64,000 nucleotides of DNA from Patescibacteria group bacterium (GCA_028748975.1 JAQTPI010000006.1:366-64365); one strand, 5' to 3'. Shown: positions 3,589-51,803, counted from the first letter of the stretch. Translations and numbers: made by a program. Notes: generated by a model from the sequence alone, not told the origin.

Positions 3589-3844
3589 AAAAACTCCTCA
3601 AATTCAAAACAGGAACTTAAAAGGAGTTTGGGGGAAATTTTTTAAATTTTCAGCACAGCCAAAAACCGGCCTTAGGCCAACTTTTTTATTTCTAAACTAT
3701 TAAATTCAACGAATAACTTAGTTAAAAAAGTCATAATATCCATCCAAAATTGGGCTAATTTAAGCTGAAATTTCCCCTGACTGCCTCAAAAACCTGTTTC
3801 TAAAATTAATTGATTACCTATTAAGTATAGCACACCTTGCTTTT

Positions 3845-8880: not shown

Positions 8881-9133
8881 AAAGTTAAAAACTCAAAACA
8901 CAATAAACAAGAAGCAAGAATTAAGAGTTAAGAATTAAGGTTACTAGTCTTGAGTTTTGCTAATTGAGTTTTGGGTTTTGTAGTTTAATTCTATCATCTT
9001 CCCCTTATTTTGTAAACTCCTCGCATTTGACCTCTTTTCACTATCGCGATATACTGTATTATTAACCATTGAGATAGAGAAACTTATTTGTACTATTTGT
9101 ATATTTGTACTTGATTTGTAATTCGTATTATCT

Positions 9134-10288
9134 ATGTTAGAAATTAATCAACAAATCATCTCCCAAATTGAAAAAGCCCGTCAAATTTTGCTTGTTTTCA
9201 AGAAAAATTGGGAAACTGATTCCGTAGCGAGCGCCTTGGCTCTGTTTTTGTGGCTGAAAAAAACCGACAAACTGGTTGATGTCATGGCTGATGGCTTTAT
9301 AGCGCCGGCTGAATTAAAATTTTTACCCGCTCTTGAAGAAATCAAACCAGAACTTCATAATCTCCAAAAATTTGTTATCAACCTGAAATTAAATCAAAAC
9401 CAAGTTTCCGATTTTGCTTATGACACAGACGGCGATAATTTAAAAATTTTTCTCACGCCCAAAACCGGCGAATTTAAAGAAAGCGATGTCACGGCCGGCC
9501 AAAGCAATTTTCTTTATGATTTAATCATCACTGTGGACACGCCGGACCTTAATTCTTTGGGCGCTATCTATGAAAAAAATCTGGATTTCTTTTTCAACAC
9601 TCCTTTGATTAATTTTGACCACGCCACCGGAAACGAACATTTCGGACAAATTAATCTGATTGATGTCCGCGCCAATTCCACAGCTGAAATTATCTATCAA
9701 TTTCTCCATGACAATTTTTCTGCCAATTTTGATGAAAATATCGCCACCTGCCTGTTGGCGGGTATTATGGGCGCCACCACCGGTTTTAAAACAGGCAACA
9801 TTTCCCCGCAAACCCTGGGTATCACCTCTGAGTTATTGGCCCTTGGCTCCAACCGCGAACAAATTGTCCAAAATCTTTTTCACGCCAAATCACTTTCTGC
9901 TCTCAAACTTTGGGGCCGGCTTTTAGCCCGGCTCCAGCCTGACCGCGCCAATCATTTGGTCTGGTCGCTTCTTTCCTATGATGATTTCATCAAATCCGGC
10001 GCCACGCCCACTGATATCAAAGGCGCAGTCAAAGAATTAGTAACTTCTCTGCCACAGGCGGAAATTATTTTAATTTTGTACGAACAGCCCTCGGGCGAAG
10101 TCGGCACGGAAGCGCTCGCTGTCCACGGCCAGCTTTTCACTTCACCCAATTACAGCGCCCTGGATTTGGTGCGCGCCTTTCGCCCCGCCGGCGACAAAAC
10201 CTTTGCTCATTTTATTATTCCCGAAGCCAAACTCCTGGAGGCGGAGAAAATTATGATTGATGAAATCAGAAAAAAAATTGCGAATTAA
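9134..10288 (+). CDS. DHH-family phosphoesterase-like protein (second NrnA-like paralog)
   Basis: DHH-like motif FDHATGNEHFG and a Gly-rich DHHA1-like segment. 384 aa. Followed by a GC hairpin terminator at 10322-10362. Confidence 0.5.
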   Translation: MLEINQQIISQIEKARQILLVFKKNWETDSVASALALFLWLKKTDKLVDVMADGFIAPAELKFLPALEEIKPELHNLQKFVINLKLNQNQVSDFAYDTDGDNLKIFLTPKTGEFKESDVTAGQSNFLYDLIITVDTPDLNSLGAIYEKNLDFFFNTPLINFDHATGNEHFGQINLIDVRANSTAEIIYQFLHDNFSANFDENIATCLLAGIMGATTGFKTGNISPQTLGITSELLALGSNREQIVQNLFHAKSLSALKLWGRLLARLQPDRANHLVWSLLSYDDFIKSGATPTDIKGAVKELVTSLPQAEIILILYEQPSGEVGTEALAVHGQLFTSPNYSALDLVRAFRPAGDKTFAHFIIPEAKLLEAEKIMIDEIRKKIAN

Positions 10289-10405
10289 TAGCGAATTACC
10301 TGCTAATTTTGCGAATAAAAATCCGCCCCGATGCGCTTTGCGCCATCGGGGCGGATTTGATTAGTCTTATTCGCCTCCATTAGCATTATTAGCAATTATT
10401 AAACT

Positions 10406-12586
10406 TTATTCGTTTTCTATCAAAATTTGATTGCTCTGCTCGCGCCACTGTGTCGCCGGAATAGTCGGATGTACTGTTTGTTTGCCATTCTTTGCCAAAT
10501 CAAATATCTCTTGCGGGGTATAACCGCCATAAATGAAAGCATTAACCACCGCGCCCCAGGAAGTATTTTTCAAGGTTAAAATCTTACCGCCATTCAGCGC
10601 TTTCAGTTCATCTCTTAAAACTATAGCTGCGTTCTCTTCAGTTTTCAAATCACCCAGTCGCGACAAACCGTAAATTTTATTCTTATTAGTGGAAATTTTC
10701 TTGGCTTCCGGCGAGAGCGGACTATAACCGCTTTTAATTTCCGTCAAATCATCAAAGCCGTCGCCATCAGTGTCTTCTTTGTTTAGATCCGTGCCATAAA
10801 GTCCTTCTTGAAAATCAGTCAGGCCATCGCCATCAGTATCAAGTTTGTAATCAACCGCTACTGTTGTTGGTGTTGATGTTTGTGTTGGTGTTGATGTTTG
10901 TGAACCAAGGCTTGGTTTAGTGCCCGAACATAAACTGTCTGCCACCACGCTGCCATTATTGTCTTGGCATCTGACTGCCCAAGAATAAGTGGTATTGGCA
11001 CTGGTACAGCTCTGGCTCGTTGTCGGCTTGGTGTCGAAACATAAACTGTCAGCCGCCGCGGCGCCGGTATTATCTTTGCAAGACACGCTTCTTGTTTGCG
11101 TACTATTGGTGCAAGTTGACCACGCACCCGAAGACCAGGAATAAGTCGTTGTGGTGGTGGTTGAACAACTTTGATTGGTTGTTGGTTTAATGCCGGAGCA
11201 TAAACTGTCAGCCACTGTGGCACTATTTTTATCTTTACAAACCACAGTTCTGGTTTGTGTGTTACTAGAACAGGTTGACCAATCACCCGAGGTCCAAGTA
11301 TAAGTAATTCCAACACCCAAAGTTGATCCTGCCACCCAACTTGTCCAATCAGAGCAACCATTAGAATTGCAGGCTTGAACTTTGGCGCTGTAAGAACGAT
11401 TGGAACTTAAAGGATTAAATGGCGCGCCATAATTAGCTGTGTTAAAAGAAGCGCCAGTTACTTTTTGGGCATCACCTACGCCATCTACTTGGACATAATA
11501 ATATGTGGCACTGCTGACTGCGTCCCAACTCCAAGTAAGGGAAGTGCTGGTTGAACCGGTAGATTTAAAATTGGTGGGTTTATCTGGTTTTGTTGCCCAA
11601 GTCGTCCCGGCCACCCAACTTGTCCAATCAGAACAACCATTAGAATTGCAGGCTTGAACTTTGGCGCTGTAAGAACGATTGGAACTTAAAGGATTAAATG
11701 GCGCGCCATAATTAGCTGTGTTAAAAGAAGCGCCAGTTACTTTTTGGGCATCACCTACGCCATCTACTTGGACATAATAATATGTGGCACTGCTGACTGC
11801 GTCCCAACTCCAAGTAAGGGAAGTGCTGGTTGAATCTGTGGTTTTCAAATTTGTAGGAGATGTAGGAATACTCTCTATTCTTGTCACTTGTTTCACATAT
11901 GAACTGTAAGCAGAACAACCGCCGGTGTTGCAGGCCCTGACTTTTGCCTGATAGTCTGTGTTTGGTTGTAATCCAGAAAAAGTAGCGGATTTAATGGAAG
12001 AAATATTGTCTTCGGTAATTTTTTGTGTTTCATCAAAACCGCCATAAAAAGGCCGGTCCTTAACAACCTCATAATACGTCGCGCCGGACTGCGCGCTCCA
12101 CACCCATTTGATGGAAGTGCTGGTATACTCATCTACTTTCAAATCCGTGGGAGTGGTAGGAGGAGTGGGCGTGGTTACCACTGGCGTTGCTGCCGCTGGC
12201 GTCTGGGCTATATCTGAACTGGCCGAAAAAACAGAACAAATGGCATTGCAAGCTTTAACCCTAGCTATGTATGCTGTATTCGGCTTTAAACCTTTAAATT
12301 CATAAGATGTGACTTTTATATCATTAGCATACAGTGTTTCTGAACCACCAACAGAATATTCCCCAAGATAAACTTCATATCTGCTCGCGCTGGCCACCAC
12401 ATTCCAAGTAAAAGAAATTGAAGTTTCTTTAATTGATTGTGGTTGTATTTGTGGCTTCCCTGGCGCTAGGGGCATAATAATTGCTTTAGCCGAATTTGCC
12501 AACAAAAAAAGCTGACCCGAAGCCAAAGCCAGCGTAAGAGCAAATATCAAAAGACCTTTAAAATTCTTTTGCGCGCGTTTTTTCAT
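10406..12586 (-). CDS. secreted surface protein with fibronectin type III-like repeats, Cys-rich modules and calcium-binding DxDxDG repeats
   Basis: Signal peptide MKKRAQKNFKGLLIFALTLALASG. Repeated ~93-aa FN3-like units, two of them identical. Repeated TWTSGDWSTCS...TQTRTVVCKD modules. DTDGDGLTDFQEG and DTDGDGFDDLTEI thrombospondin-type-3-like Ca-binding motifs. Confidence 0.7.
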   Translation of the reverse strand: MKKRAQKNFKGLLIFALTLALASGQLFLLANSAKAIIMPLAPGKPQIQPQSIKETSISFTWNVVASASRYEVYLGEYSVGGSETLYANDIKVTSYEFKGLKPNTAYIARVKACNAICSVFSASSDIAQTPAAATPVVTTPTPPTTPTDLKVDEYTSTSIKWVWSAQSGATYYEVVKDRPFYGGFDETQKITEDNISSIKSATFSGLQPNTDYQAKVRACNTGGCSAYSSYVKQVTRIESIPTSPTNLKTTDSTSTSLTWSWDAVSSATYYYVQVDGVGDAQKVTGASFNTANYGAPFNPLSSNRSYSAKVQACNSNGCSDWTSWVAGTTWATKPDKPTNFKSTGSTSTSLTWSWDAVSSATYYYVQVDGVGDAQKVTGASFNTANYGAPFNPLSSNRSYSAKVQACNSNGCSDWTSWVAGSTLGVGITYTWTSGDWSTCSSNTQTRTVVCKDKNSATVADSLCSGIKPTTNQSCSTTTTTTYSWSSGAWSTCTNSTQTRSVSCKDNTGAAAADSLCFDTKPTTSQSCTSANTTYSWAVRCQDNNGSVVADSLCSGTKPSLGSQTSTPTQTSTPTTVAVDYKLDTDGDGLTDFQEGLYGTDLNKEDTDGDGFDDLTEIKSGYSPLSPEAKKISTNKNKIYGLSRLGDLKTEENAAIVLRDELKALNGGKILTLKNTSWGAVVNAFIYGGYTPQEIFDLAKNGKQTVHPTIPATQWREQSNQILIENE
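11325..11850. repeat. near-perfect tandem duplication (2 x 279 bp) inside the FN3 surface-protein gene
   Basis: Segments about 11332-11565 and 11611-11844 are identical except for 1-2 nt. They encode a duplicated 93-aa unit. Confidence 0.85.
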
Positions 12587-15884: not shown

Positions 15885-16198
15885 CTTCTCTTTCCTTTCG
15901 CTTGTTTGATGATAAATTTGATGATAAATTTGTCCGACAAATAAAAATATTTGTCACTTATCCCCAAATTAACAACTTTCTTTCAGCTTTCAAAAAAACA
16001 TCTTATTTAGGCGTAAAACCCCCCTTTTTTCACAATTTTCCTCCTTTCTTTTTCTTTTTCCGTTGTTAAAGTTCCTTTGTCTGCTTTAATTTTATCTTAC
16101 CTGGAAACCCTTGTCAAAAAAATAAAAAAACCCGCCTTCGGCTTGGCCGACAACGGGTTATTTTTGACTGATTATAAATAGATAATATTTATTCCAAG

Positions 16199-20143: not shown

Positions 20144-20818
20144 ATGGCTCCCTTCCATCTCAAAAAAATCCAACCCCAAAGTGACACCGGCCGCCTGCTT
20201 AAACTTCAAAGAGAGCGGCTGGGTTTGTCTTTGGAAACAATCTCACGCCAGCTGCAAATCAATAAAAACTATCTGGAAGCCATTGAAGAAAGCGCCTGGT
20301 ACAATTTGCCCGGCGAATTCTATGTCACCACTTTTACCAAAAAATATGCCCTGGCCTTGGATTTAAAATGGGAAAAGCTCAAAAAAAATTTCGAAGCCGA
20401 AATAAAATCAACGCGCGGTTTGCTTCGCGATAAAAATTTAAACGCTCCCTCAAAAAAAATCAGCAGCCTGATTCTGCCTCGGCTCATCCGCAAATTTATT
20501 ATTTTTTTAATCGTTCTGTCTCTGCTAACTTATCTTGGGACACAAATCTGGCGCGTAACCGCTCCGCCCAAATTGGTTGTTTTAAATCCAATGGAAGAAC
20601 GCTCTATTCAAAACTCTCCGACCTTAACCATTACCGGCCAGACCGACCCCAAAGCCAAAATCAAAATCAATTCTCTGGAAGTTTCCCCCGATGACACCGG
20701 CTATTTTTCCGCCACTCTTGACTTATCCTACGACTTAAATATAATAAAGGTAGAAGCCAAGAAAAAATATTCCCGCAGCACTATCATAACGAGGAATGTG
20801 GTGTATAATAAAAATTAA
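20144..20818 (+). CDS. rodZ: RodZ-like HTH (XRE-type) single-pass membrane protein
   Basis: N-terminal HTH LGLSLETISRQLQINKNYLEAIEE, central TM helix FIIFLIVLSLLTYLG, and a C-terminal periplasmic domain. Confidence 0.55.
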   Translation: MAPFHLKKIQPQSDTGRLLKLQRERLGLSLETISRQLQINKNYLEAIEESAWYNLPGEFYVTTFTKKYALALDLKWEKLKKNFEAEIKSTRGLLRDKNLNAPSKKISSLILPRLIRKFIIFLIVLSLLTYLGTQIWRVTAPPKLVVLNPMEERSIQNSPTLTITGQTDPKAKIKINSLEVSPDDTGYFSATLDLSYDLNIIKVEAKKKYSRSTIITRNVVYNKN

Positions 20819-23557: not shown

Positions 23558-24382
23558 ATGCTCAACCTCCTCATCAAACTCGGCTTAGACGAAAACGAAG
23601 CCAAAATCTATTTGGCTTTATTAGAGTTGGGTCCGGCTCTGGTTACGGAAATCGGGCAAAAAGCCGACGTCGGCCGCACCACCTGTTATGACGTTTTGGA
23701 ACGCCTGGTCAAACATAACCTCGTTACCTACGCTTCCGGCCAGGCCGCCAAAAGAAAATATTCCGCTATGCCGCCCCATAACTTGGTTGGTTTCTTGGAG
23801 CGCAAACACCGGCAACAGGAAAAACAATTAGTGGAATTAAAAGAAAAAATGCCGGAATTAAAAATGCTCTATAAAGAAACCGAGCGCCCGACTGTCAAAT
23901 TTTTTGAAGGGGTGGAAGGCGTCAAATCAATTTACGCTGAAACCCTCAAAGCCAAGGGCGAAATTCTGTCAGTGGGCGACTGCGAAGAATGGGACACGCC
24001 CGAACTTTCCGTCTGGGGCGCCAATTACAACCGCCAGCGCTCAAAATTAAAAATTAAAGAACGGGTCATAATCCCGGCTGGCGAAAAAACTATTAATTGG
24101 TTTATTGATTACCCCACCACCAAAAAATATACCGAATTCCGAATTCTGCCCAAAGAAAAGATCAATTATCTTTTTTACAGCGAAATCAATATTTATGATG
24201 ACAAGGTGGTCATCGCGCTTTTAAAAAGGCCCAATCGTCTGGGCATCATGATCACCAGCCGGCAATTTGCCAATCTGTTGCGCGCTCTTTTTGAAATGGC
24301 TTGGCTGGCAGCGGAAAAATACCCAGGTGAAAAATATGGCAAGGAACTACTCAAAAAGAAAAATTTTGTCCAACCGGCTTGA
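23558..24382 (+). CDS. TrmB-family transcriptional regulator
   Basis: N-terminal TrmB-type winged HTH (LDENEAKIYLALLELGPALVTEIGQKADVGRTTCYDVLERL). 274 aa. Confidence 0.65.
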   Translation: MLNLLIKLGLDENEAKIYLALLELGPALVTEIGQKADVGRTTCYDVLERLVKHNLVTYASGQAAKRKYSAMPPHNLVGFLERKHRQQEKQLVELKEKMPELKMLYKETERPTVKFFEGVEGVKSIYAETLKAKGEILSVGDCEEWDTPELSVWGANYNRQRSKLKIKERVIIPAGEKTINWFIDYPTTKKYTEFRILPKEKINYLFYSEINIYDDKVVIALLKRPNRLGIMITSRQFANLLRALFEMAWLAAEKYPGEKYGKELLKKKNFVQPA

Positions 24383-28803: not shown

Positions 28804-29091
28804 TTAAAGCTCTAACGGATAAATTTGTATGTGATAAATCCATAAATTGGAAAAAATAATTTTCCATTCAAACATGTCCTGCCAACCAGGCCTTGATTTT
28901 TTAAACTCTTCTACTAGCTTCCAAATGTTTTCTCTATTTAAAAGTTCCTTTGCTTCTTTTTCCGCTTCTTCCAAATTTTTTGCTTTCAATGGCACCGTCA
29001 TTCCGTCTGGTTCACCCTTTATTAAATCTGCCTGGCGATTTTTGAAAGACCATTTAACCGTAAATTCAAGTTTCCATCCCGGCATTTCCAT
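28804..29091 (-). CDS. hypothetical protein (95 aa)
   Basis: Intact ORF downstream of the Ubl terminator. No family recognised. Confidence 0.35.
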   Translation of the reverse strand: MEMPGWKLEFTVKWSFKNRQADLIKGEPDGMTVPLKAKNLEEAEKEAKELLNRENIWKLVEEFKKSRPGWQDMFEWKIIFSNLWIYHIQIYPLEL

Positions 29092-29145
29092 TTATTCCTC
29101 CTTGGTTAATTTGTGTATCCTCATCTTATCTTAAGAAAAAAACAT

Positions 29146-29190
29146 TGTCAAATAAAAAATAAAAACGCCGATCACTGGTGTGATCGGCGT
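29146..29190 (-). terminator. rho-independent terminator of the Ubl gene
   Basis: Perfect hairpin CGCCGATCAC-ACCAG-TGATCGGCG followed by TTTTTATTTTTT on the minus strand. Confidence 0.8.
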
Positions 29191-29210
29191 AACTTGAACG
29201 GCTGGTATGT

Positions 29211-29507
29211 CTACCGGCCGTTGCCCTTGATGAATTTCGTCATGATGACGGTGTCGTTGGCCGACACGGGCTGGTCCAGCATCGCCATCTTGGTCTAGTC
29301 GACGAGGGTCGTATTCCACCGCAGTTCAAACTCGTCGCCACGGCCGACTACCGGCAGGTCGATTTGTTCTTTCGGCCCGCGGGCGGTATTGGCCACTTCG
29401 ATCGCTTCGCGCAGTGTCGTTCCTTCTTCCACATTGACTTCGGTCAGTCGTCCCGGGAATTTCCCCAGACGCATCGGAAAGTACCCGTATGTCCCTGTTT
29501 TCGTCAC
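29211..29507 (-). pseudogene. MoaD/ThiS-like ubiquitin-like beta-grasp protein interrupted by an in-frame TAG (29295-29297); 70 aa before the stop, 98 aa if read through
   Basis: RBS AAGGAGG then GTG at 29507. LTEVNVEEGTTLREAIEVA matches the MoaD/ThiS core. After the TAG the same frame continues with TKMAMLDQPVSANDTVIMTKFIKGNGR, which matches the MoaD C-terminal strand (xDGDxVxxxPPVSGG-like). Segment GC is about 58%. Confidence 0.55.
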
Positions 29508-29635
29508 TGTGAACCTCCTTGGTTTCCTGTTCTTGTTTGACCTCCCCAACACCACCCAATTTCTATTAATTTGCCTCTGTCATTCCCCCTTTCTTGGGCT
29601 AAGATGAGGATTTTAGATTATTTTTATTTTTGGCT

Positions 29636-29737
29636 AAAAATTAAGGCTCCACTTCACCTTAGCGTAATAAAAAAAACTTGTCAAATATTAATTAAGGTTC
29701 TACTTTACCCTAGCGCAGTAAAAAAAGTTTGTCAAAC
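29636..29737 (-). promoter_or_regulatory. two tandem copies of the cluster-specific promoter/leader module upstream of the Ubl gene
   Basis: On the minus strand: TTGACA-N17-TAAGGT and TTGACA-N17-TAGGGT, each followed by the conserved GAACCTTAA leader box. Confidence 0.55.
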
Positions 29738-30463
29738 AATGGTAAACTTTCGGCTATAAATTTGGGTCAGAGGACGCAGACCGAAAATCATCTCATTTTC
29801 CAATTCATCCTCTTCACCATCCAAAATGCTTTGCCAGCGCATCATCTGCCAGATTGCCAGACCGGACAAAATGTCCGAAGTCGGACCCACGCTGGGTTCA
29901 GACCGGCAGACAGAAGGAGTGGCATCTTCATCGGTATAATGCAGTGTCTCTTCATAACCTGCGACGTGAGCCGGATTAATGGGATTGACAACGTAAATTC
30001 TGCCCTGGTCAGCGCCCATTCTGGTTTCAATCACCAGTTTGACATTGGGTTTGTATTTCAACGAACCATTCCAAATGTCCACGCGGGATTTCATGGTGTC
30101 GGTTAAGACGAAAACCACCTCTCCCAAAGTTTGGATACCGTCCACGAATTCGTCGTGAATGGTAATTTCGGTTCCGGTTTTCAAGCGGATCCATTCCCGC
30201 ATAGCCTCAATTTTTTTCTTGCCTACATCGCTTGGAAAAAACCTGGTGTTGGGCACGTTATGGTCCACCACCACGTCTGTGTCATAAAGCTCGATATTGG
30301 GTACGCCCAGTTCGGCCACGCCCAGGGCCGCTTTGGAACCAGTGGATCCACTGCCAATTATGGTCACGAGTTTCTCACCGAATTTATAGGGTGAAAACAC
30401 ACCCAAATGTCTGTTAACATCAAGAATTATTCTTGGTGTTGGTGTCGCTGTTGTTTCCGGCAC
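29732..30463 (-). CDS. E1-like ubiquitin-activating enzyme family protein (ThiF/MoeB/HesA fold, minimal 243 aa)
   Basis: RBS AAGGAGG and GTG start. Gly-rich Rossmann loop IIGSGSTGS, LYDTDVVVDHNVPNTRFF (DxDxVxxxN.R motif), and a C...GVxGP-like catalytic loop VCRSEPSVGPTSDILSGLA. Confidence 0.7.
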   Translation of the reverse strand: MPETTATPTPRIILDVNRHLGVFSPYKFGEKLVTIIGSGSTGSKAALGVAELGVPNIELYDTDVVVDHNVPNTRFFPSDVGKKKIEAMREWIRLKTGTEITIHDEFVDGIQTLGEVVFVLTDTMKSRVDIWNGSLKYKPNVKLVIETRMGADQGRIYVVNPINPAHVAGYEETLHYTDEDATPSVCRSEPSVGPTSDILSGLAIWQMMRWQSILDGEEDELENEMIFGLRPLTQIYSRKFTIV

Positions 30464-30495
30464 GGTAACCTCCTTTTTTATTTTTAATCATGGCG

Positions 30496-31380
30496 TTAAT
30501 CGTATATGGTATTGTCTTCAAAACTGCCGCTTTTGTCAGCCAGATTGGTTCCTTGCTGAAAACCAACGGCCGCGGGGTCAGTACCGTAAGAACTGGTTTG
30601 ATAATACGGATAAACCGTTACTGGTTCCGGTTCTTTAATCACAATCTTATCTTTGATTACCTGCTGCCAATATTCGCGGCGAGCCGGATCAATCGGTTGG
30701 CGTTTGCCCAAAACTTCCCAAGGCGCATCCTCAATCAGTAAATTTTCTTCTATTAAATACAGGGTTACTTGCATCCGGCCGTCTTTATTAAAAATACACC
30801 GGATAAAATGGTCGTAGCAGTCCCCGACAAACTCATCCATTTGGTCCTCGTCCGGTCCGCTGGCAAATGTTCCCATATGAACATGGCAATGACCCCAATA
30901 GCGGATGGAGTTAAAAATCTCCGCGCCATTGGGACGGGTCAATATTTCTTGGGTAACCAACTCAGCTTGTCCACCCGGAGTCAGCTTGCATTCCGAACCG
31001 TGCACCTCTTGCCCGGGCACAAAAATCTCCTTGATGAAAAAATCTTGGCCCCGTTTCTCCACCCAACCCAAATTGCCGATTTCCACCCTCATTAAATCGG
31101 CCAGAATGAACTGGTCGTTGATAACGGTGGGGTCAAAATAGGTTATGGGAATATGCACATTTTGCGGCGGTGCGATAAAACTCACTTTTGGCACAAATTC
31201 ATGCTGTTTAAAATCTTTGGTCTTCCTGAATTTCTTTCGCCAACCCTTCCAGGTTCCTTTTTTCCAGGTTCCCTTGGTCCCGCCGCTTCCGACATAAATA
31301 ATTTTAGGCTCCTCTATTTTTTGTTCCGGTTTTGCCATCTCTGGTTTTGGGTCTGTCGCCACTTTGTCGGGCTTTGTCAT
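30496..31380 (-). CDS. JAB/MPN(+) domain metalloprotease (JAMM isopeptidase-like) with basic N-terminal extension
   Basis: Complete JAMM motif: upstream Glu (GQEVHGSE), then HCHVHMGTFASGPD, which is HxHx7Sx2D. 294 aa. Confidence 0.7.
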   Translation of the reverse strand: MTKPDKVATDPKPEMAKPEQKIEEPKIIYVGSGGTKGTWKKGTWKGWRKKFRKTKDFKQHEFVPKVSFIAPPQNVHIPITYFDPTVINDQFILADLMRVEIGNLGWVEKRGQDFFIKEIFVPGQEVHGSECKLTPGGQAELVTQEILTRPNGAEIFNSIRYWGHCHVHMGTFASGPDEDQMDEFVGDCYDHFIRCIFNKDGRMQVTLYLIEENLLIEDAPWEVLGKRQPIDPARREYWQQVIKDKIVIKEPEPVTVYPYYQTSSYGTDPAAVGFQQGTNLADKSGSFEDNTIYD

Positions 31381-31474
31381 TTCTTTTCCGTCCTTTCTTT
31401 TTTAAATCTTGGGTTAGAGGGGTTTAAATTGCGGGCGAGCGCTAGGTTTAACCCGGCGCCCGCCCCGCTGTTTT

Positions 31475-33445
31475 TTATTTTTTTGCCTTTTCTACAATTG
31501 GCCAGTTATCAATATGCTGGCCCATGGGATCGTTATAATTCGCCGATTCCAAAAAAACAATGCACATAATCAATAATGGCATGAAATCAAAACGGGCAAT
31601 CAATTGCGGTAAAACTTCTTCCATCTCGGCGCCCAGACAGGCATGGCCATCCTCAAATACGTGGGGAGCATTGTGTCCGCCTATCTTTTGCGTCAAATTA
31701 AAAAATCTGATTTGGTTGCAATCGCCATTAAGCGGAATAACAATCCGGAAAGCGCCAATCAAGTGTATTTGGTCTTTTCTCGGATGTTTGCAGAATAAAA
31801 TATCAGTATCCACTATTAACTGGTTTTTGATGCAGCTGACTTTTCTTATCTTTTCCAATTGCCGCATTTTTTCAAAATCAATGGCAAATTGCTTCCGGTA
31901 AACTCCGCCATCCTTCTTCTTGCCATCCGCCACCTCTTTTAAGGCATCGTATTTTCTAATCGCGGTCACCAGTTGGATTTGCAAACTGTTTACCCGGTTG
32001 GCCACTTCCGTCAATTCTTCCTTGGCGTCCTTAATAATTGACTCTTTATTTTGCAGACAAGTGTTGGCGTAGGCCTGTCCTTGTGCTGTCCGCATCTTGG
32101 CTTCCTGTTTTTGTCTTTCCGCTGTTGTGCTTGTTAAAAGACTGGCCACGGCTTGCATCAACTTTTTAAAAATCTTTTTATATTCTTCGTCCGCTCCCAA
32201 AATAGGGAAGGGAATATAAAGATTTCTGCCCGCTATGATTTGTCCGGCCTCTTGGCCGTCCTCATCATATATTATTTTCCCTTCGTTGGTAATCTGAAAA
32301 GATCCGCTTTTGGTTGGCAGAGGAATTCTCCAAAGCTGTTTGGGTGTTAAAAACCCCTGTCTGATGCTTTCCGTTGGCGCGGCAAAAAAATAAATATGAA
32401 ACATGTTGTCATAGCGCGGCAGGTCTCTCATCCGAAACTCGCCTCCGCCGTTATGCAAACAGATGCTCCGCCTAATCTTTGTCATTAATTCCCGGCTGAT
32501 GATGGGCGCGTAAACACGCCTGACTAATTCCAGCTCTCTGCTGTTAAAACCCCCAGAATCAATTACCATCGACCTGTCTATCTCTATGCCCTCCAGTTTT
32601 TTGGAGTCTTTCTTTTTTTCCGGTTCCACTGCTTTAACTGGCCGCCGAAACCTTTTCAGTTGGGAAAAAACTTCCGGCGCCACCACCGCTTCCAGAATTT
32701 TTCTAAAAATAGTAAGTTCTGACTCGCGGCCATAATGACACAGGTCGTGAAAAATATAAAGAGTGTTTTCGCCCACCAGCTCGGCCACCGCATATCTTTT
32801 GTCTCTAATCACTATGCCTTGGCCGCTGGGTGCGAAAGATTCATCATCACAAGCCACCCTTGTTCCCCAAATCTTCTCAGGTGTCTGGGTTTCCGTGTCA
32901 CCGCTTTCTGACGGGGCCGACCAAATGCGGATATGGAAAACATCGCCTTCAGCCGGGCTGGTATGTTTTCGATGCGGCACGCTGATGACAATTTCTGTTC
33001 CAATTTTTGGTAAAAGAATTTCTTTGGCTAATTTACGAAATCGGCTGCTGCCCTCGCCGTTCCAATCTTTGATTTTCACCTGGCAATCAGCGCCTCTGTC
33101 TTTTTTTGAATTATCAAAAATTACTCTTTGTATGATTCTTTTTTGTTCCTTGGTGATGGCCGAAGTGTTTTTCCACCATTTTAAATCATCGCCCTTGGCA
33201 TATTCCGGATCCAAACCGGTTATCTCCGCAATCTCCAGTTTAAAAACTCCGGTGATCTCGGTTGGTAATTCTGCCAAACTCATTTTTTTTAGGGCTCTTA
33301 ATCCCTGGCTTAACTGTGTTTCGTCCAAAACAATGCCTTTTTTACTGCCCATCTCAAAGTCGGCAAAAATGACCTTTTGGGCATTTAAAGCCGCTTTTTT
33401 ACTCTCGTCAATAGCTGGCAAAAAATAATTTCTCACCACTTCCAT
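31475..33445 (-). CDS. large paralog 1 (656 aa): internal duplicated domain, coiled coil, C-terminal UBC/E2-like domain with putative catalytic Cys (GHACLG)
   Basis: RBS AAGGAGG. C-terminal FRIVIPLNGD...IRFFNLTQKIGGHNAPHVFEDGHACLG...LLIMCIVFLESANYNDP aligns with the UBC-fold pattern F.L.I.FP.DYP...HPN...G.ICLDIL...LLSICSLL.DPNPDDP. Confidence 0.6.
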   Translation of the reverse strand: MEVVRNYFLPAIDESKKAALNAQKVIFADFEMGSKKGIVLDETQLSQGLRALKKMSLAELPTEITGVFKLEIAEITGLDPEYAKGDDLKWWKNTSAITKEQKRIIQRVIFDNSKKDRGADCQVKIKDWNGEGSSRFRKLAKEILLPKIGTEIVISVPHRKHTSPAEGDVFHIRIWSAPSESGDTETQTPEKIWGTRVACDDESFAPSGQGIVIRDKRYAVAELVGENTLYIFHDLCHYGRESELTIFRKILEAVVAPEVFSQLKRFRRPVKAVEPEKKKDSKKLEGIEIDRSMVIDSGGFNSRELELVRRVYAPIISRELMTKIRRSICLHNGGGEFRMRDLPRYDNMFHIYFFAAPTESIRQGFLTPKQLWRIPLPTKSGSFQITNEGKIIYDEDGQEAGQIIAGRNLYIPFPILGADEEYKKIFKKLMQAVASLLTSTTAERQKQEAKMRTAQGQAYANTCLQNKESIIKDAKEELTEVANRVNSLQIQLVTAIRKYDALKEVADGKKKDGGVYRKQFAIDFEKMRQLEKIRKVSCIKNQLIVDTDILFCKHPRKDQIHLIGAFRIVIPLNGDCNQIRFFNLTQKIGGHNAPHVFEDGHACLGAEMEEVLPQLIARFDFMPLLIMCIVFLESANYNDPMGQHIDNWPIVEKAKK

Positions 33446-33464
33446 GCTTCTTCCTCCTTTTAAG

Positions 33465-33541
33465 CTGGGTTTTTAAGGTTCATCTTCACTGTTTTTAGTG
33501 AATAGCTAACCTTAGCAAAACTAAAAAACCTTGTCAAGTAA
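33465..33541 (-). promoter_or_regulatory. promoter/leader module of paralog 1
   Basis: Minus strand: cTTGACA-N17-TAAGGT, hairpin TTCACT-N6-AGTGAA, GAACCTTAAAAACC box, AAGGAGG, ATG. Confidence 0.55.
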
Positions 33542-33601
33542 TAAAATAAATAAAAAACGGTCTGCTTTGCCAGCAGGCCGTTATCTTGAAAACATTTATT
33601 T

Positions 33602-35563
33602 TTATTTTTGTTCCGTAACTATTGGCCAGTCCGCCACCCGCTCTCCGGCGCTCGCCTGGCCCTCTGCCGTTTCCAGAAAAATAAGACACATGGTTATCAA
33701 TGGTCCAAAATCAAACCGGGCGATTAATTGCGGTAAGATTTCTTGCAGCTGGCTGCCAAAGTAAGCCTGGCCATCCGGCGCCACGTTGGGAGCATTAAAT
33801 TCGTTAACCCGCCGTGTCAGATTAAAAAATCTGATATCCTCGCAATTGCCCCAAAAAGGGATAAAAATCTGGAAAGCGCCAATCAGGCGTGTTTCTTTTT
33901 TGCTGTAGAAAAGAGTGTTGGTCTCCACTATAAGACAATCCGGGGTGAAAGTAATCTGCCTTATCTTTTCCAGTCGCCCCATTTTCTCAAAATCAGCGCT
34001 AAACTTCTCTTGGTCGCCACCCTTTCTTTTGCCCTCGGTTGCTTCCTTCAGCGCATCATGCTTTCTGATGGCCGCTATCAACTGTGTTTGAAAATTTTTG
34101 ATTTGCCTGGTAATATCCACAAACTCAGCCGCGGCATCTTTCTTGATCAAATCTTTATACTGCCAACAAATGGCGGCATAAGCTTTTCCTTTGGCTGCCC
34201 GCATTTCTTCTTCCCACTGCTGCCTTTCCGCTGCCGTACTGGTAAAAAGCCTGGCCACTTCTGCCATTAAACAGGTAAAAATCCGTTGCAATGTTTTTTG
34301 GTCGGAAAATAAAAAAAATGGAATATAAAGATTTCGGCCGCCGATAATTTGCCCGACTCTTTGTCCAGCATCATCATAAACCATTACCCCTTCCCTGGTA
34401 ATCGGGCAAGGGTTATTCCCGGCCGGCAAACTAATGCCCCATAATTTATTTGATGAAGAAAATTGTCTGCCCGCCATTGAATTGGTAAAAAATATATGAA
34501 ACACCTCGTCATAAAAAGGTAATGGCTGTTGTCTTATGCTCCTATTTTTATGCAGGCAAACGCCGCGCTTAATTTTTGCCATTAATTCCCGCGCGATAAT
34601 TGGAGCATAAACTTTTCTAGCCAAAGCGCATTCTTCTGAGCTAAACCCCGGTAATTCCATCGTCAGTGTTTTATTTATATCTATTTTTTTGCTTTCCAAT
34701 TCTTTTGATTTTGTTTCTTTTTTTACTGGAGCTGGCCGCCGAAACCTTTTCAGTTGGGAAAAAACTTCCGGCGCCACCACCGCTTCCAGAATTTTTCTAA
34801 AAATAGTAAGTTCTGACTCGCGGCCATAATGACACAGGTCGTGAAAAATATAAAGGGTGTTTTCGCCCACCAGCTCGGCCACTGCGTAGTTGTTTGTCTT
34901 GTCTTTAATAACTAGGCCAAGGCCGCTCGCTGGAAAAGATGCGTCACCGCAAGCCACTTCTGTTCCCCAGATAGTTGGGGGTGTGCGAACCTCTCTGGAT
35001 CCGCTCTTCAATGGTGCCGACCAGATGTAGATATAAAAATTATCATCTGCAACCGGTTCTTTTTGGTCTCCATGTGGCACGCTGATAAAAATGTTTGTTT
35101 TAATTCTGGGCCAAAGAATTTCTTCGGCTAGCTGGCAATAATCTTCGCTGTTACTGCGTCCGTCCCAATGATCAACTGTCACAAAACCCGACCCATCCTC
35201 CTCTTCTATTGTTTCTTCTTTTTTCAAACTCTCACCAATCTTTTCCTGTAAAAATCTCCGTTGCTCTGCCGCCAGGGTGTAGCTATTTTTGCACCACCTC
35301 AAATCATCGCCTTGGGCATATTCCGGATCCGCCCCTGTGATGTCAATGGTCAAAAGCTTGAAAGCTCCCTCAATCCCGGTGGACAGTTCCGCCAAGATTG
35401 CTTTGTTTAAAGCTCTCAATCCCTGAAGTAATTGGGTTTCGTCCAAAATAATGCCCTGTTCGCCTCCCAGTTCAAAATCGGCAAAAATGACCTTGTGGGC
35501 GTTTAAAGCTGTTTTTTGTGCCGCATTGACAGCTGCTAAAAAATAGCTTCTGACAACTTCCAT
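33602..35563 (-). CDS. large paralog 2 (653 aa): same architecture, E2-like active-site Cys/His replaced (DGQAYFG)
   Basis: 52-aa block identical to paralog 1. C-terminal domain is present but lacks the Cys and the NYNDP motif. Confidence 0.6.
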   Translation of the reverse strand: MEVVRSYFLAAVNAAQKTALNAHKVIFADFELGGEQGIILDETQLLQGLRALNKAILAELSTGIEGAFKLLTIDITGADPEYAQGDDLRWCKNSYTLAAEQRRFLQEKIGESLKKEETIEEEDGSGFVTVDHWDGRSNSEDYCQLAEEILWPRIKTNIFISVPHGDQKEPVADDNFYIYIWSAPLKSGSREVRTPPTIWGTEVACGDASFPASGLGLVIKDKTNNYAVAELVGENTLYIFHDLCHYGRESELTIFRKILEAVVAPEVFSQLKRFRRPAPVKKETKSKELESKKIDINKTLTMELPGFSSEECALARKVYAPIIARELMAKIKRGVCLHKNRSIRQQPLPFYDEVFHIFFTNSMAGRQFSSSNKLWGISLPAGNNPCPITREGVMVYDDAGQRVGQIIGGRNLYIPFFLFSDQKTLQRIFTCLMAEVARLFTSTAAERQQWEEEMRAAKGKAYAAICWQYKDLIKKDAAAEFVDITRQIKNFQTQLIAAIRKHDALKEATEGKRKGGDQEKFSADFEKMGRLEKIRQITFTPDCLIVETNTLFYSKKETRLIGAFQIFIPFWGNCEDIRFFNLTRRVNEFNAPNVAPDGQAYFGSQLQEILPQLIARFDFGPLITMCLIFLETAEGQASAGERVADWPIVTEQK

Positions 35564-35584
35564 GTTTCTGCCTCCTTTTCCATT

Positions 35585-35660
35585 AAATTTTTAAGGTCTG
35601 TTTGCTTCACTCTACTGGTGAATATTTCAGCTTAGCAAAACTTATCCCGCCTGTCAAGTT
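35585..35660 (-). promoter_or_regulatory. promoter/leader module of paralog 2
   Basis: TTGACA-N17-TAAGCT, hairpin TTCAC...GTGAA, CAGACCTTAAAAATT box, AAGGAGG. Confidence 0.55.
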
Positions 35661-35795
35661 TATTTTCTAAATAAAAATATAACAAAAAATAAAAAAACGG
35701 TCCAATAATTCGCCAGTTAGCGAATCGGACCGTTTGTTGAATTTTGAATTTTTATTATTTTTCGCTCAGTTTAAATATTTAAATCCAGACGAATC

Positions 35796-37790
35796 TTAGC
35801 TGGTTTTGCGTTTTCCTTTGTCCGCTTCCTCTTGTCCTGTTTTTACCAGCGGCCATTGATCAACATGTCTGCCGATATCATCAAGGTTCGCTGATTCCAA
35901 AAAAATAATGCACATAATAACAATTGACGTGAAATCAAAACGAGCCATCAGCTCTGGTATAATTTCATGCATCTCCCTGCCCAGACAGGCATGGCCGTCA
36001 GCATATACGTGGGGAGCGTTCATTCGGCTGTCATGCGCATTAATCAGCTGTGTCAAGTTAAAAAATCTGAGATCATTGCAGCTGCCCTTAAAAGGAATAA
36101 CGATCTGAAAAGCGCCGATCAGGCGTATTTCTTTATTAGTAGGGTGCTGGTAATAAAGAATATCAGTCTCCACAATCAGGTGGGTCTTGGTGAAAGAAGC
36201 CCATCTTATCTTGTCCAGTTGCCCTATTTTCTCAAATTCAGCGGCAAATCTCTCTTGATATAATTCTTTGCCCTCCTTTTTGTCCTCAACTACTCCTCTT
36301 AAAATATCCTGCCTTCTGTTGGCCGCTACCAATTGCGTTTGCAGATTTTTTATTTGGCTACCAGTCTCAGTCAGTTCCTGGCCGGCAGTTTCTTTTTTAA
36401 TTTTGGCAAGAATCGCCTCTTTGTAGTTTTGGCAAACACGAGCATAAGTTATTTTTTGAATTGCCATCAGCCCGGCTTCCCGCTGCTGCCTTTCGGCCGC
36501 CGTGCTCTTTAAAAGCCAGTTTACTTCTTCCAATAAACGAATAAAAAACTCTTTGTTTTCTTTGGTCTCAAAAGTTAAATAAAAAGGAAGGTAGAGATTG
36601 TTGCCATTAATGAGCCAAGCCACGACTTGGCCTTGGTTGTCATAAATCGCCCTTCCCTTGTTTAAGATCACTAGGGAGTTCTTGGGGTTATCCAATTTTA
36701 TGTTGATTCCCCAAGGCGTCGGTGGACTCAATGGCGCGTTTTTAATTGCCAGTCCCGGCGAGGCTCCCAAAAAAACATGGAACATATTATCATAAAAAGG
36801 CTGAGTTTTTTTGCCAAATTCCCCGCCATGTAAACACACGTTTCTTTTAATGACTGGGGTCAGCACCTGTTTAACTATCTTGGCTGCTTCTCCGTAAAGT
36901 CTTTCAAAAAAAATTCGTGAAGAAAAATCATTTGCGCCAGCTATGAAAACTTCTTGATCCAACCAATCAGCTGGTTTTTTTTCTTTTTCTTTCACTGCCA
37001 AGGCCTCAATAATAGCCATGGTTCTGGCGATTCCCTCTTCAAATATTCTTAACTCGTTTTCATCCCCGTTGTGGCTACAAATATCATGATGAAAATACAA
37101 ATTATTCATGCCGATTAATTCGGCTACCGCGTAGCCCGTGGCTTCATCCACCAGCGAAACTCCCAGACCACTGTCCACCGTACCAATACCACGATCTGAC
37201 ACTTCAATTCCCCAAATACTCTCCGGGGGACTCTTTGTGTTATGGCTTCCGCAACTGGGAGCGGCATGAAGGTGGATATAAAAATCCGAACCCAAAATCG
37301 GATCTGTCCAACCAGATTGTTTATGGATCTGGACCTTCTTTTTTATTTTTGGAGTTATGTTCTTCATTGCCAGCCGGGTAAAAGAATTGTCATCCGGCCA
37401 TTTCCGCCAATCTTGCCGAGCCGCCTTAATCCAATTTATTTCTCCTTCTCGCTCTTGTTCCGGCGGACATAAATAATTAAATAATAATTCCTTTGCCGCC
37501 TCCGGAATCTTCAAAATATTTTTGTACCAGTTCAATTCCTCTCCGGCTTCATAACCAGCATCGGGTTCCATCGGAACTAACAGAGTTTGATAAACTCCTC
37601 TCGCCCCAGTTGGTTGTTCCCAAAGTATGGCTTTTCGCAGCCGCAGTAAACAATGTTTAATTTGTGTCTCCTCAACCAAAATTTTTTGTCCATCTCCTGG
37701 TGTGACTCTGGAAAATTTCACGCCCTGCTGGGTTAAAAATGCCTCTTCCTCTCTGGTTACCATTAAAAGGAATTTTTTTGGTTCTTCCAT
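35796..37790 (-). CDS. large paralog 3 (664 aa): divergent member with intact E2-like motif NAPHVYADGHACLG...FLESANLDD
   Basis: Colinear with paralogs 1 and 2 at about 35-40% identity outside the conversion tract. Same promoter/leader module upstream. Confidence 0.6.
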   Translation of the reverse strand: MEEPKKFLLMVTREEEAFLTQQGVKFSRVTPGDGQKILVEETQIKHCLLRLRKAILWEQPTGARGVYQTLLVPMEPDAGYEAGEELNWYKNILKIPEAAKELLFNYLCPPEQEREGEINWIKAARQDWRKWPDDNSFTRLAMKNITPKIKKKVQIHKQSGWTDPILGSDFYIHLHAAPSCGSHNTKSPPESIWGIEVSDRGIGTVDSGLGVSLVDEATGYAVAELIGMNNLYFHHDICSHNGDENELRIFEEGIARTMAIIEALAVKEKEKKPADWLDQEVFIAGANDFSSRIFFERLYGEAAKIVKQVLTPVIKRNVCLHGGEFGKKTQPFYDNMFHVFLGASPGLAIKNAPLSPPTPWGINIKLDNPKNSLVILNKGRAIYDNQGQVVAWLINGNNLYLPFYLTFETKENKEFFIRLLEEVNWLLKSTAAERQQREAGLMAIQKITYARVCQNYKEAILAKIKKETAGQELTETGSQIKNLQTQLVAANRRQDILRGVVEDKKEGKELYQERFAAEFEKIGQLDKIRWASFTKTHLIVETDILYYQHPTNKEIRLIGAFQIVIPFKGSCNDLRFFNLTQLINAHDSRMNAPHVYADGHACLGREMHEIIPELMARFDFTSIVIMCIIFLESANLDDIGRHVDQWPLVKTGQEEADKGKRKTS

Positions 37791-37811
37791 GATTTTTACC
37801 TCCTTAAGTTA

Positions 37812-37884
37812 GGTTTTTAAAGTTCGTTTTCACTTCTTAAAGTGAGTACTTTAACTTAGCAAAATTAAAAAGAGTTGTCAAGTG
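37812..37884 (-). promoter_or_regulatory. promoter/leader module of paralog 3
   Basis: TTGACA-N17-TAAGTT, hairpin TCACTT...AAGTGA, GAACTTTAAAAACC box, AAGGAGG. Confidence 0.55.
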
Positions 37885-37948
37885 AGAAAAAATCAAAAAC
37901 CGTTCCGACACAATGTCGGAACGGCTCTTGTTTTTTGAAAAATCAAAA

Positions 37949-38266
37949 TTAGATTTTCAAATCATCAACCGCGGAGGTGTCGACCGGTTCGCGATTTTCT
38001 CTGCGCGGACCGCGAGTGGAACCTTCCGGTTCGTTGATTTTCATGTTAACGCGAGCGTTGTTTCTGGCGCCCACCACGCGCAGTAAGGTGCGGATGGCGT
38101 GGGCATTTCTGCCTTGGCGGCCAATGACATAACCCATATCAGCTGGGTTAAGGTCTAAAGTTAACAACACTCCCATTTCGTCAACCTTGCGATCAACTTT
38201 GACGTCGTTCGGGTTGTCCACAATCGCTTTGACCACGAACTCGACAAATTTCACATCATTTTCCAT
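37949..38266 (-). CDS. KH-domain RNA-binding protein (KhpA/YlqC-like) with C-terminal extension
   Basis: KH fold with GxxG: VIGRQGRNAHAIRTLLRVVG. Start placed at MENDVKF. Confidence 0.55.
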   Translation of the reverse strand: MENDVKFVEFVVKAIVDNPNDVKVDRKVDEMGVLLTLDLNPADMGYVIGRQGRNAHAIRTLLRVVGARNNARVNMKINEPEGSTRGPRRENREPVDTSAVDDLKI

Positions 38267-38484
38267 ATTTTCTCTTCTGTCAGGCCCGCAAATTCCAAAT
38301 GGCATTTCAGGCCTGTTTTTCCAGCAATCACGACCTTTCTTTACTTAATTTTTAAAAATATACCCTTGCTGGTTTTCAAAATAAGTATAGCATACCTTAA
38401 AATCTGTGTCAAATTCGAACTTGCGGTCTTTTGAAAGAAGGCTTATAATTAAATTAATATCAACAACAAAAATAGGAGGCAAAA

Positions 38485-38712
38485 ATGGCCGGACAAATTT
38501 TCAGGCGAGAATTGGTCGATCTCACACAAGACACAGAAGAAACCGCTCTCATGGTTGACATCGCTGGTAAATCACTAAAAGGAGGGGAGCTTATAATAGT
38601 TAGAGAAGTGATAAGCGATGAGACACCAGAAGGAAGAGCGCGGATAAAAAAACTTATTCAAAAGGGTTGGCAACAAGTAGAACCTGCCAAAAAAGAAGAC
38701 ATCAGGGGATGA
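38485..38712 (+). CDS. hypothetical protein (75 aa)
   Basis: RBS TAGGAGG upstream. Intrinsic terminator at 38703-38733. Confidence 0.45.
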   Translation: MAGQIFRRELVDLTQDTEETALMVDIAGKSLKGGELIIVREVISDETPEGRARIKKLIQKGWQQVEPAKKEDIRG

Positions 38713-51563: not shown

Positions 51564-51803
51564 TAAGGCAAATGGCAGGCAGGCGCGCCCCGCAAATGCG
51601 GGGTTCCCGCAAGGGATTGAGAGTTCGAGTCTCTCCTCCAGCATTAAAAGTTACAGAAATTTTTTATAAATTTCTGTTTTTTTATTTATTTTTTTGCACT
51701 TGACATTAAATATCAACTATGCTAAACTTAAATATTATCGAATTTTCGATAATCCCTGCCACGGGGAACCCGTGGAAATTCAAAATCAAAAAAGGAGGAA
51801 GTT

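Follow-up and report, generated by a model that had tools for sequence, protein, structure and literature searches.

CapW, CapH/CapP, and CapK/CapS are regulators that control bacterial defence operons. Immune operons are documented to be controlled by repressors that act upstream of them (PMC13373217). Bil, CBASS type II, and Bub are bacterial conjugation operons with genes for a ubiquitin-like protein (Ubl), E1, E2, and JAB. A gene cluster on the minus strand of a 64,000-nt stretch of DNA (hereafter, the window) from Patescibacteria group bacterium (GCA_028748975.1 JAQTPI010000006.1:366-64365) resembles them in gene set, with a Ubl, an E1 of the ThiF type, a JAB-like protein, and large proteins that have an E2-like motif in their C-terminal region. 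This cluster differs from those operons in that its family is very rare and in that it contains three tandem E2-like paralogs (P1, P2, and P3), each of which has its own promoter. A sequence-only reading of positions 29,636 to 37,884 had described a promoter and 5'-leader module repeated five times in the cluster and had proposed that the five units form a regulon. In the analysis described here, the promoters proved to be of the general type found throughout the window, and we consider it about evenly probable that constitutive housekeeping promoters are combined in this cluster with a duplicated 5' untranslated region, the stem-loop and box of which act on mRNA stability or translation.

All five TTGACA-N17-TAnnnT promoters were found where the sequence-only reading had placed them, i.e. 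one upstream of each paralog and two upstream of the Ubl gene:

37881-37853, minus strand, P3 promoter: TTGACA, 17 nt ending in TGC, and TAAGTT (..TGCTAAGTT); preceded by the khpA terminator at 37930-37894
35657-35629, minus strand, P2 promoter: TTGACA, 17 nt ending in TGC, and TAAGCT (..TGCTAAGCT); preceded by the P3 terminator
33537-33509, minus strand, P1 promoter: TTGACA, 17 nt ending in TGC, and TAAGGT (..TGCTAAGGT); preceded by the P2 terminator
29735-29707, minus strand, Ubl promoter a: TTGACA, 17 nt, and TAGGGT (..CGCTAGGGT)
29684-29656, minus strand, Ubl promoter b: TTGACA, 17 nt, and TAAGGT (..CGCTAAGGT)

The stop codon (TGA) of the E1 gene lies inside the -35 element of Ubl promoter a, and Ubl promoter b is a tandem duplicate of promoter a with a period of 51 nt.

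Exact TTGACA-N17-TAnnnT sites occur 19 times in the window (0.56 expected). Fourteen of them are located outside the cluster, and each of these precedes either a ribosome-binding site (RBS) with a start codon or a tRNA gene; examples are a tRNA, khpA, and a histidine-phosphatase gene. The dinucleotide GC is present immediately 5' of the -10 element in 14 of the 19 promoters, and an extended -10 element (TGn) in nine, including six outside the cluster. TGC-TAAGGT represents such an extended element, the paralog promoters having TG at -15/-14. The sequence GCTAAG was found at the unrelated promoters 17582 (with the same 9-mer, TGCTAAGGT), 24379, and 46947. The GTTTTGC sequence that had been regarded as a conserved feature of all five sites is present in the three paralog promoters and missing from the Ubl copies, and its TTTGC core also occurs at the unrelated promoters 465 and 12671. 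In addition, the promoter of a neighbouring open reading frame (ORF) of 95 amino acids (29151) shares 79% identity with Ubl promoter b over 42 nt. The -35 element, 17-nt spacing, TAnnnT, and GC/TGC context thus correspond to the general promoter consensus of the window, and the five sites are most likely ordinary housekeeping (sigma-70/RpoD-type) promoters that do not constitute a dedicated class. Occurrence before unrelated genes, which the sequence-only reading had named as a finding that would refute its module, was thus observed for the promoter part.

The idea of a dedicated promoter class read by an extracytoplasmic function (ECF) or alternative sigma factor and defining a regulon is accordingly very improbable. 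The sequence GTTTTGCTAAG is common to the three paralogs, and the box described below begins with GAAC, which may resemble an ECF -35 element. The same -35 element, spacing, and -10 element, including GCTAAG and TTTGC, nevertheless serve unrelated housekeeping genes and a tRNA; TTGACA is the -35 element of RpoD, not of ECF factors; and if GAAC in the box is read by eye as an ECF-like -35 element, the -10 element would coincide with the RBS. No sigma or anti-sigma gene was detected in Pfam scans of selected ORFs of at least 60 amino acids across the 64 kb, and no regulator gene is present in or beside the cluster, where the sequence-only reading had suggested searching for one. The only DNA-binding-type proteins among the scanned ORFs, none of them beside the cluster, are TrmB-like (23558-24379) and HTH_25 (20144-20815) proteins at a distance of 5-9 kb, and YebC and ROK proteins about 12-18 kb away on the opposite side. 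The likeness among the five promoters beyond the consensus is explained by their being duplicates. The repeat family that covers the promoter (D10) extends both upstream and downstream of it, and the E2-like paralogs were copied as whole units consisting of promoter, leader, gene, and terminator. A dedicated sigma factor or regulon was thus a tempting but mistaken conclusion, the seemingly cluster-specific promoter being the standard one of the organism. The window also provides a clean promoter consensus for an uncultured Patescibacteria lineage, namely TTGACA, 17 nt, and (T)GC-TAnnnT.

The leaders contain further conserved elements. The full module, i.e. a TTCAC-N7/8-GTGAA hairpin followed by a GA(A)C(C/T)TTAAAAA(CC/TT) box, was identified in the three paralog leaders only:

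37846-37829, minus strand, P3 leader hairpin CTCACTttaagaAGTGAA, -4.8 kcal/mol
37825-37812, minus strand, P3 box GAACTTTAAAAACC, one mismatch to the 14-nt box; RBS AAGGAGG at 37805-37799
35622-35606, minus strand, P2 leader hairpin TTCACcagtagaGTGAA, -3.3 kcal/mol; arms one nt nearer than in P1 and P3
35598-35586, minus strand, P2 box variant GACCTTAAAAATT; RBS at 35577-35571
33502-33485, minus strand, P1 leader hairpin TTCACTaaaaacAGTGAA, -4.9 kcal/mol
33481-33468, minus strand, P1 box GAACCTTAAAAACC, exact 14-nt box; RBS at 33459-33453
29700-29689, minus strand, Ubl box a, box-like GAACCTTAATTA; shared 9-mer at 29700-29692, no hairpin
29649-29638, minus strand, Ubl box b, box-like GAGCCTTAATTT; shared 9-mer at 29649-29641, no hairpin

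The hairpin, which had been described for all five copies, is therefore absent from both Ubl copies, and the GAAC(C/T)TTAAAAA(C/T)C box exists in its exact form only in P1, with one mismatch in P3, a variant in P2, and nothing beyond GA(A/G)CCTTAA in the Ubl copies. A box close to the RBS, described as about 25 nt before it, exists in the paralogs only, in which the box starts 20-22 nt and ends 6-8 nt 5' of AAGGAGG. In the Ubl units, the 9-mer starts 6 nt 3' of the -10 element and ends 169 (a) and 118 (b) nt 5' of the RBS at 29520-29514. In all five units, the first conserved element is found 6-7 nt 3' of the -10 element, at the predicted +1 position, after a discriminator of 6 nt. Counted from there, the first base of the box is +1 in the Ubl units but about +28 to +32 in the paralog leaders. 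Spacings also vary among the paralogs (7 or 8 nt between the arms, 3 or 7 nt between hairpin and box, and 6-8 nt between box and RBS). A stem of 5-6 bp is predicted in all three paralog leaders, with no true compensatory pair; in P3, the outer U-A pair is lost and an inner pair is gained, such that 6 bp are kept. What remains of the proposed shared leader site is a cluster-specific conserved element of the three paralogs, which does not extend to the Ubl units. The proposed regulon of five units appears doubtful: no single element occupies a comparable position in all units, the Ubl promoters lack the hairpin and share with the paralog leaders only a 9-mer placed differently, and no regulator was found.

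Leader elements were searched by regular expressions and by mismatch counting, and the leader alignment was checked by hand. The sequence GA[AG]CCTTAA occurs three times on the two strands of the whole window, always in the cluster, and no further above-chance match to the hairpin and box patterns was obtained within the window. One minus-strand sequence at 16061-16074 (GAACTTTAACAACG), about 15 nt 3' of the -10 element of promoter 16117, has three mismatches to the box; at up to three mismatches the box gave 12 matches in the window versus 14 expected, so this sequence is within chance. A search of 596 Gb of genomes for TCAC-N7/8-GTGA-N4-8-GAMCYTTAAAAA yielded 31 matches (about 40 expected by our own estimate), which were single, were scattered over the taxonomy, and included none from Patescibacteria. 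The source metagenome-assembled genome (MAG) is outside this collection, as a peptide-pattern scan missed the window's own genes. Rfam searches at the gathering score detected only tRNAs, two of them in the window, in the window and in the related contig L035 considered below, and a search of 29100-38500 at E values up to 5 gave nothing with E < 0.2. Start-proximal hairpins are not a genome-wide feature, since three were observed versus 1.9 expected at the other promoters of the window. Two perfect 8-bp palindromes were found about 6-10 nt 3' of other promoters, i.e. TTCGCTAA-aatt-TTAGCGAA at about 12640-12615 (promoter 12671, minus strand, -7.7 kcal/mol) and TTATCGAA-tt-TTCGATAA at about 51735-51755 (promoter 51700, plus strand, -6.5 kcal/mol); they are further candidate 5' hairpins or operators.

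Between P1 and P3, the hairpin arms and box are identical at 22 of 24 positions (92%), whereas identity is 9/20 (45%) in the discriminator, loop, and linker and 36/78 (46%) at four-fold synonymous sites. Identity at four-fold sites between P3 and P1 or P2 is 44-46%, with about 26% expected at random, and these sites are close to saturation. The difference between arms plus box and four-fold sites in the P1/P3 comparison yielded p = 5e-5 in a Fisher test, which is partly circular in that the elements were delimited by their own conservation. P2 retains 10 of the 10 arm positions and 10 of the 13 box positions. Because the arms and box are 92% identical while the loop and linkers are at the level of synonymous sites, the paralog hairpin and box appear to be real elements kept by selection, and the interleaving of neutral-looking loops with conserved segments argues against recent gene conversion. 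The leaders could instead have no function past promoter and RBS, with the likeness of hairpin and box being a residue of duplication or gene conversion. All copies are paralogous DNA, only three sequences are available, the hairpin energies are unimpressive, and a 157-nt tract with 98% identity between P1 and P2 shows that conversion has been at work in the cluster. We regard this explanation as improbable, however, because conversion would have evened out everything, while the arms and box (92%) stand out in identity from the loop and linkers between them (45-46%), and because a 14-mer with 13/14 identity has a chance of about 3e-4 per position, by our own calculation, given a background of 46%.

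All of the conserved elements are located 3' of the -10 element and are thus predicted to be transcribed, and the hairpin begins right at the predicted 5' end. In Bacillus subtilis, RNase Y-type decay is sensitive to the 5' end and is impeded by 5'-terminal structure. A role at the RNA level is favoured because the elements lie in the predicted transcript, the spacings vary, the register shift in P3 keeps 6 bp, and RNase Y and RNase III are encoded in the genome. The stem-loop of 5-6 bp at the predicted first transcribed nucleotide would most likely shield the mRNA from 5'-end-dependent decay, and the single-stranded RACCUUAAAAA box 5' of the Shine-Dalgarno (SD) sequence would most likely tune translation initiation or bind some factor. 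The leader element is a small cis-element that is restricted to the lineage; its general kind is known, and its function is putative.

Several points weigh against a role in mRNA stability or translation. The 5' hairpin is the sole consistently predicted structure in the paralog leaders (-3.3 to -4.9 kcal/mol), but the hairpins are weak and scarcely better than shuffled sequences (P = 0.03, 0.03, and 0.29), such that their reality is supported by sequence conservation and not by folding energy; the fold of the whole leader is not significant (z between -1.2 and +1.0). The arms are conserved without compensatory change, which a DNA operator or an RNA-binding protein fits equally well. The 5'-terminal position of the hairpin is deduced from the spacing to the -10 element, and pairing between the paralog box and the SD sequence amounts to only 4-6 bp and is not consistently part of the minimum-energy structure. 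Finally, the paralog copies number three, the paralog leaders of the only close relative being located beyond the ends of its contig.

Other candidate assignments of the leader sequences were inspected by eye. A plus-strand antisense promoter (TTCACT-N16/17-TAACCT) does not hold for P2; a divergent promoter for which the box would supply a -10 element (TAAGGT, copied on the minus strand) has no -35 element; and a sigma-dependent pause element would require a TAnnnT that the box does not contain. The sequence AACUUUAA may resemble the 'epsilon' enhancer of phage T7 gene 10; the window contains no 16S rRNA to which it could be complementary. Of a LexA/SOS box, the cluster box would offer at most a GAAC half-site.

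The Ubl gene has a long leader, which is purine- and G-rich and could be compared with that of one close relative:

29637-29508, minus strand, long conserved Ubl 5' leader; RBS AAGGAGG at 29520-29514; 114 aligned columns from box b to the RBS, 86% identity (93/108) to L035

This single close relative was found via its JAB-like protein in two Logan runs (L035/L036), which are mutually identical and cover the 3' part of P1 and the JAB-like, E1, and Ubl genes, with 73 and 89% protein identity for the JAB-like protein and E1, respectively. The -35 and -10 hexamers of both Ubl promoters are identical in the relative, and promoter b is identical at 27 of 29 positions. The interval from the E1 stop codon to the Ubl RBS is 86% identical (186/216) versus 70% at 307 four-fold sites (p = 1.5e-5), which indicates conservation of the interval as a whole, with its tandem promoters and long leader. 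Both tandem Ubl promoters are thus probably functional. Box a reads AGACCTTAATT in L035 and box b reads GGGCCTTAGTTT (also given as GGGCCTTAGTTTTTAGC); in this comparison, the Ubl box is no more conserved than its surroundings. In L035, the Ubl terminator and ychF are separated by a GC-rich, apparently non-coding segment of about 400 nt (3370-3795), which has its own TTGACA-N17-TAAAAT promoter and terminator and gave no Rfam match; its counterpart in the window is the 95-amino-acid ORF (28804-29091), which has a weak DUF6065 match.

The box could also be an anti-SD sequence, with CCUU and its flanks pairing with AAGG or GAGGUUC of the RBS and throttling translation of the paralogs and, over a long range, of Ubl. 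At the Ubl RBS, GAGGUUC can pair with GAACCUU over 7 bp (box a) or over 7 bp that include two G-U pairs (box b). Exactly this helix closes the Ubl leader in the RNAalifold and RNAfold predictions, an A-to-G change in L035 retains the pairing as G-U, and CCUU-AAGG pairing is part of the minimum-energy structure of P2. We nevertheless consider this explanation rather improbable: the fold of the Ubl leader is no better than those of shuffled sequences (z = +0.37), and pairing in the paralogs is limited to 4-6 bp, is energetically marginal, is missing from the centroid structures of P1 and P3, and is weaker still in P3 (CUUU).

The main rival to an RNA-level role is an operator. In this explanation, the inverted repeat TTCAC(T)-N6-(A)GTGAA (about +1 to +18), perhaps together with the RACCTTAA box, is a DNA site for a trans-encoded repressor, which would silence the paralog promoters and, via the box, those of the Ubl gene as long as no signal is received, in the manner of CapW, CapH/CapP, or CapK/CapS at other bacterial defence operons. 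The conservation of the arms in sequence without covariation and with a freely varying loop would be expected of such a site, as would the low stability of the RNA structure. The site overlaps the start site, which is typical of a roadblock operator, on near-consensus promoters that would otherwise be fully on; GA[AG]CCTTAA is confined to the cluster within the window; and immune operons have documented upstream repressors, as cited above (PMC13373217). A fixed spacing of half-sites is not observed, however, as they are separated by 8, 8, and 7 nt (P2 being off by 1 bp), and the distance between hairpin and box differs by 4 nt. Furthermore, the Ubl promoters have no palindrome, the box itself is not palindromic, no regulator gene is present in or beside the cluster, the TrmB-like and HTH_25 genes have no such site, and the 64 kb contain no further copy of it, e.g. 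before a regulator gene. An operator therefore seems unlikely to us.

A more far-reaching and likewise unlikely possibility is that the hairpin and RACCUUAA box form a lineage-specific riboregulatory or operator code that coordinates the three E2-like paralogs and the Ubl of a very rare, uncharacterised conjugation system in a genome with very few regulators. Phage infection or stress could, for example, be sensed by a single factor that binds RNA or DNA, or translation of Ubl and E2 could be coupled through the box.

Returning to constitutive promoters with leaders acting at the RNA level, the layout of the cluster suggests how dosage may be set. A further structure separates P1 from the genes downstream:

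31468-31431, minus strand, GC-rich stem-loop 3' of the P1 stop codon and before the JAB-like gene, with no U-tract and no promoter after it; about -25 kcal/mol (consensus), kept in L035

Each E2-like paralog and, twice over, the Ubl gene would have a strong constitutive promoter of their own, whereas the JAB-like and E1 genes would be transcribed at a lower level after P1, behind this strong stem-loop. Candidate roles of the stem-loop, by which P1 expression would be separated from JAB/E1 expression, are attenuation, processing, and 3' stabilisation. The resulting dosage would be much Ubl and E2-like protein and less JAB and E1. The earlier suggestion that E1 and JAB are read through from P1 is consistent with the finding that they have no promoter of their own, with the qualification that read-through may be attenuated by the stem-loop.

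An uncultured Patescibacteria MAG is the source of the window, which spans nearly all of a 65-kb chromosomal contig (protein names PHT40_02960 to PHT40_02970) and encodes core genes, including dnaA, dnaN, recA, ftsK, infB, RNase Y, RNase III, and others. The genes of the cluster and its upstream neighbour are as follows:

38305-37949, minus strand, KhpA-like KH protein, followed by a terminator at 37930-37894
37790-35796, minus strand, P3 paralog gene, ATG at 37790; terminator at about 35732-35691
35563-33602, minus strand, P2 paralog gene, ATG at 35563; terminator at about 33580-33552
33445-31475, minus strand, P1 paralog gene, ATG at 33445
31380-30496, minus strand, JAB-like gene
30463-29732, minus strand, ThiF-type E1 gene
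29507-29211, minus strand, Ubl gene, GTG at 29507; in-frame TAG at 29297-29295; terminator at 29190-29165

Terminators with U-tracts are present 3' of khpA, P3, P2, and Ubl, and the cluster is thus divided into four transcription units with five promoters. On the minus strand, the Ubl terminator is followed by the promoter and ORF of the 95-amino-acid protein and then by ychF.

The paralog proteins share 55% identity between P1 and P2 and 38-40% between P3 and either of these, and many stretches of their DNA are 70-80% identical. The 157-nt tract mentioned above (P1 32638-32794 and P2 34732-34888) stands out from the remainder of the two genes, which have about 66% DNA identity elsewhere, and thus appears to indicate recent gene conversion. 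The large paralogs have a C-terminal motif, NAPHV..DGHACLG, that is E2-like. Their similarity to E2 enzymes is below threshold (PADLOC E2, E = 0.02; PDB UBE2A, E = 0.5, in the right region). Near the C-terminus of P2 (gene 33602-35563), the sequence is NAPNV..DGQAYFG compared with NAPHV..DGHACLG in P1 and P3; this loss of the His and Cys of the motif suggests that P2 may be a catalytically dead paralog.

In the window, the Ubl gene contains an in-frame TAG (29297-29295, minus strand), which is CAG (Gln) in L035/L036, where the Ubl of 101 amino acids is intact and ends in GNGR. The copy in the window is thus presumably a nonsense mutant or pseudogene, or else the result of an assembly error. 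The Ubl ORF of 86 amino acids predicted by the ORF finder begins at an upstream in-frame GTG (29555), whereas the start supported by an RBS is the GTG at 29507. GC content reaches 0.57 in the Ubl gene region (29200-29550), which exceeds the values of the window (0.42) and of the cluster genes next to it (0.40-0.49).

No Pfam or PADLOC family was found for the large proteins or the JAB-like protein of the cluster. Relatives of the paralogs are limited to four proteins in 5.8 billion clusters, also when a profile was used, and two of these are P1 and P2 of the window. Scans of contigs added three more, distant loci of the paralog family, one each from a bacterium of high GC content (L001), a metagenome (L002), and a viral contig of 193 kb in IMG/VR (L034). 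These loci have a common order of a large protein, a protein of about 290-370 amino acids, and a ThiF E1, plus a Ubl or poly-Ubl. Upstream of their genes, the sequences are unrelated, and the module was not found there. In the viral contig, positions 7446-12148 encode proteins of 473 and 458 amino acids, a protein of 369 amino acids, and a ThiF E1 of 233 amino acids; the 458-amino-acid protein is related to the C-terminal half of the paralogs. L001 contains two pairs of paralog and JAB-like genes and a poly-Ubl with three repeats, and the Ubls of L001 and L002 end in RGN.

Taken together, the leader elements, the tandem Ubl promoters, the long leader, and the stem-loop suggest that a rare Ubl conjugation system may set the dosage of its parts with no regulator dedicated to it. 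In practical terms the gain is modest: expression studies obtain candidate elements, and the remaining genes of the system could be sought with the motif in the whole genome.

Compared with known regulatory systems, the five cluster sites have the TTGACA, 17-bp spacer, and TAnnnT of sigma-70 (RpoD/SigA) extended -10 promoters, and the three paralog promoters also have the TGn. No difference is essential: the -10 elements are TAAG(N)T instead of TATAAT, a form shared by roughly one third of the window's other promoters, and the two Ubl promoters have CGC where the paralog promoters have TGC. As in the tandem promoters of rrn operons (P1-P2), the Ubl gene is preceded by two complete consensus promoters, 51 nt apart and kept in the relative, but this pair is a direct sequence duplication in which each copy is accompanied by the same downstream 9-mer. 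Like the palindromic operators of CapW, CapH/CapP, and CapK/CapS, the paralog inverted repeat lies across the predicted transcription start, here of an operon related to Ubl conjugation; in contrast to these systems, the cluster has no adjacent regulator, the spacing of the half-sites is variable, and the Ubl promoters lack the site. Compared with the 5'-terminal stabilisers of Escherichia coli ompA and of the B. subtilis aprE and ermC leaders, the paralog stems are short (5-6 bp) and weak (-3 to -5 kcal/mol), and their arms are kept by sequence rather than covariation. The paralog stem-loop would nonetheless resemble these stabilisers in beginning 0-1 nt from the predicted 5' end and before a strong RBS, in a host that encodes RNase Y.

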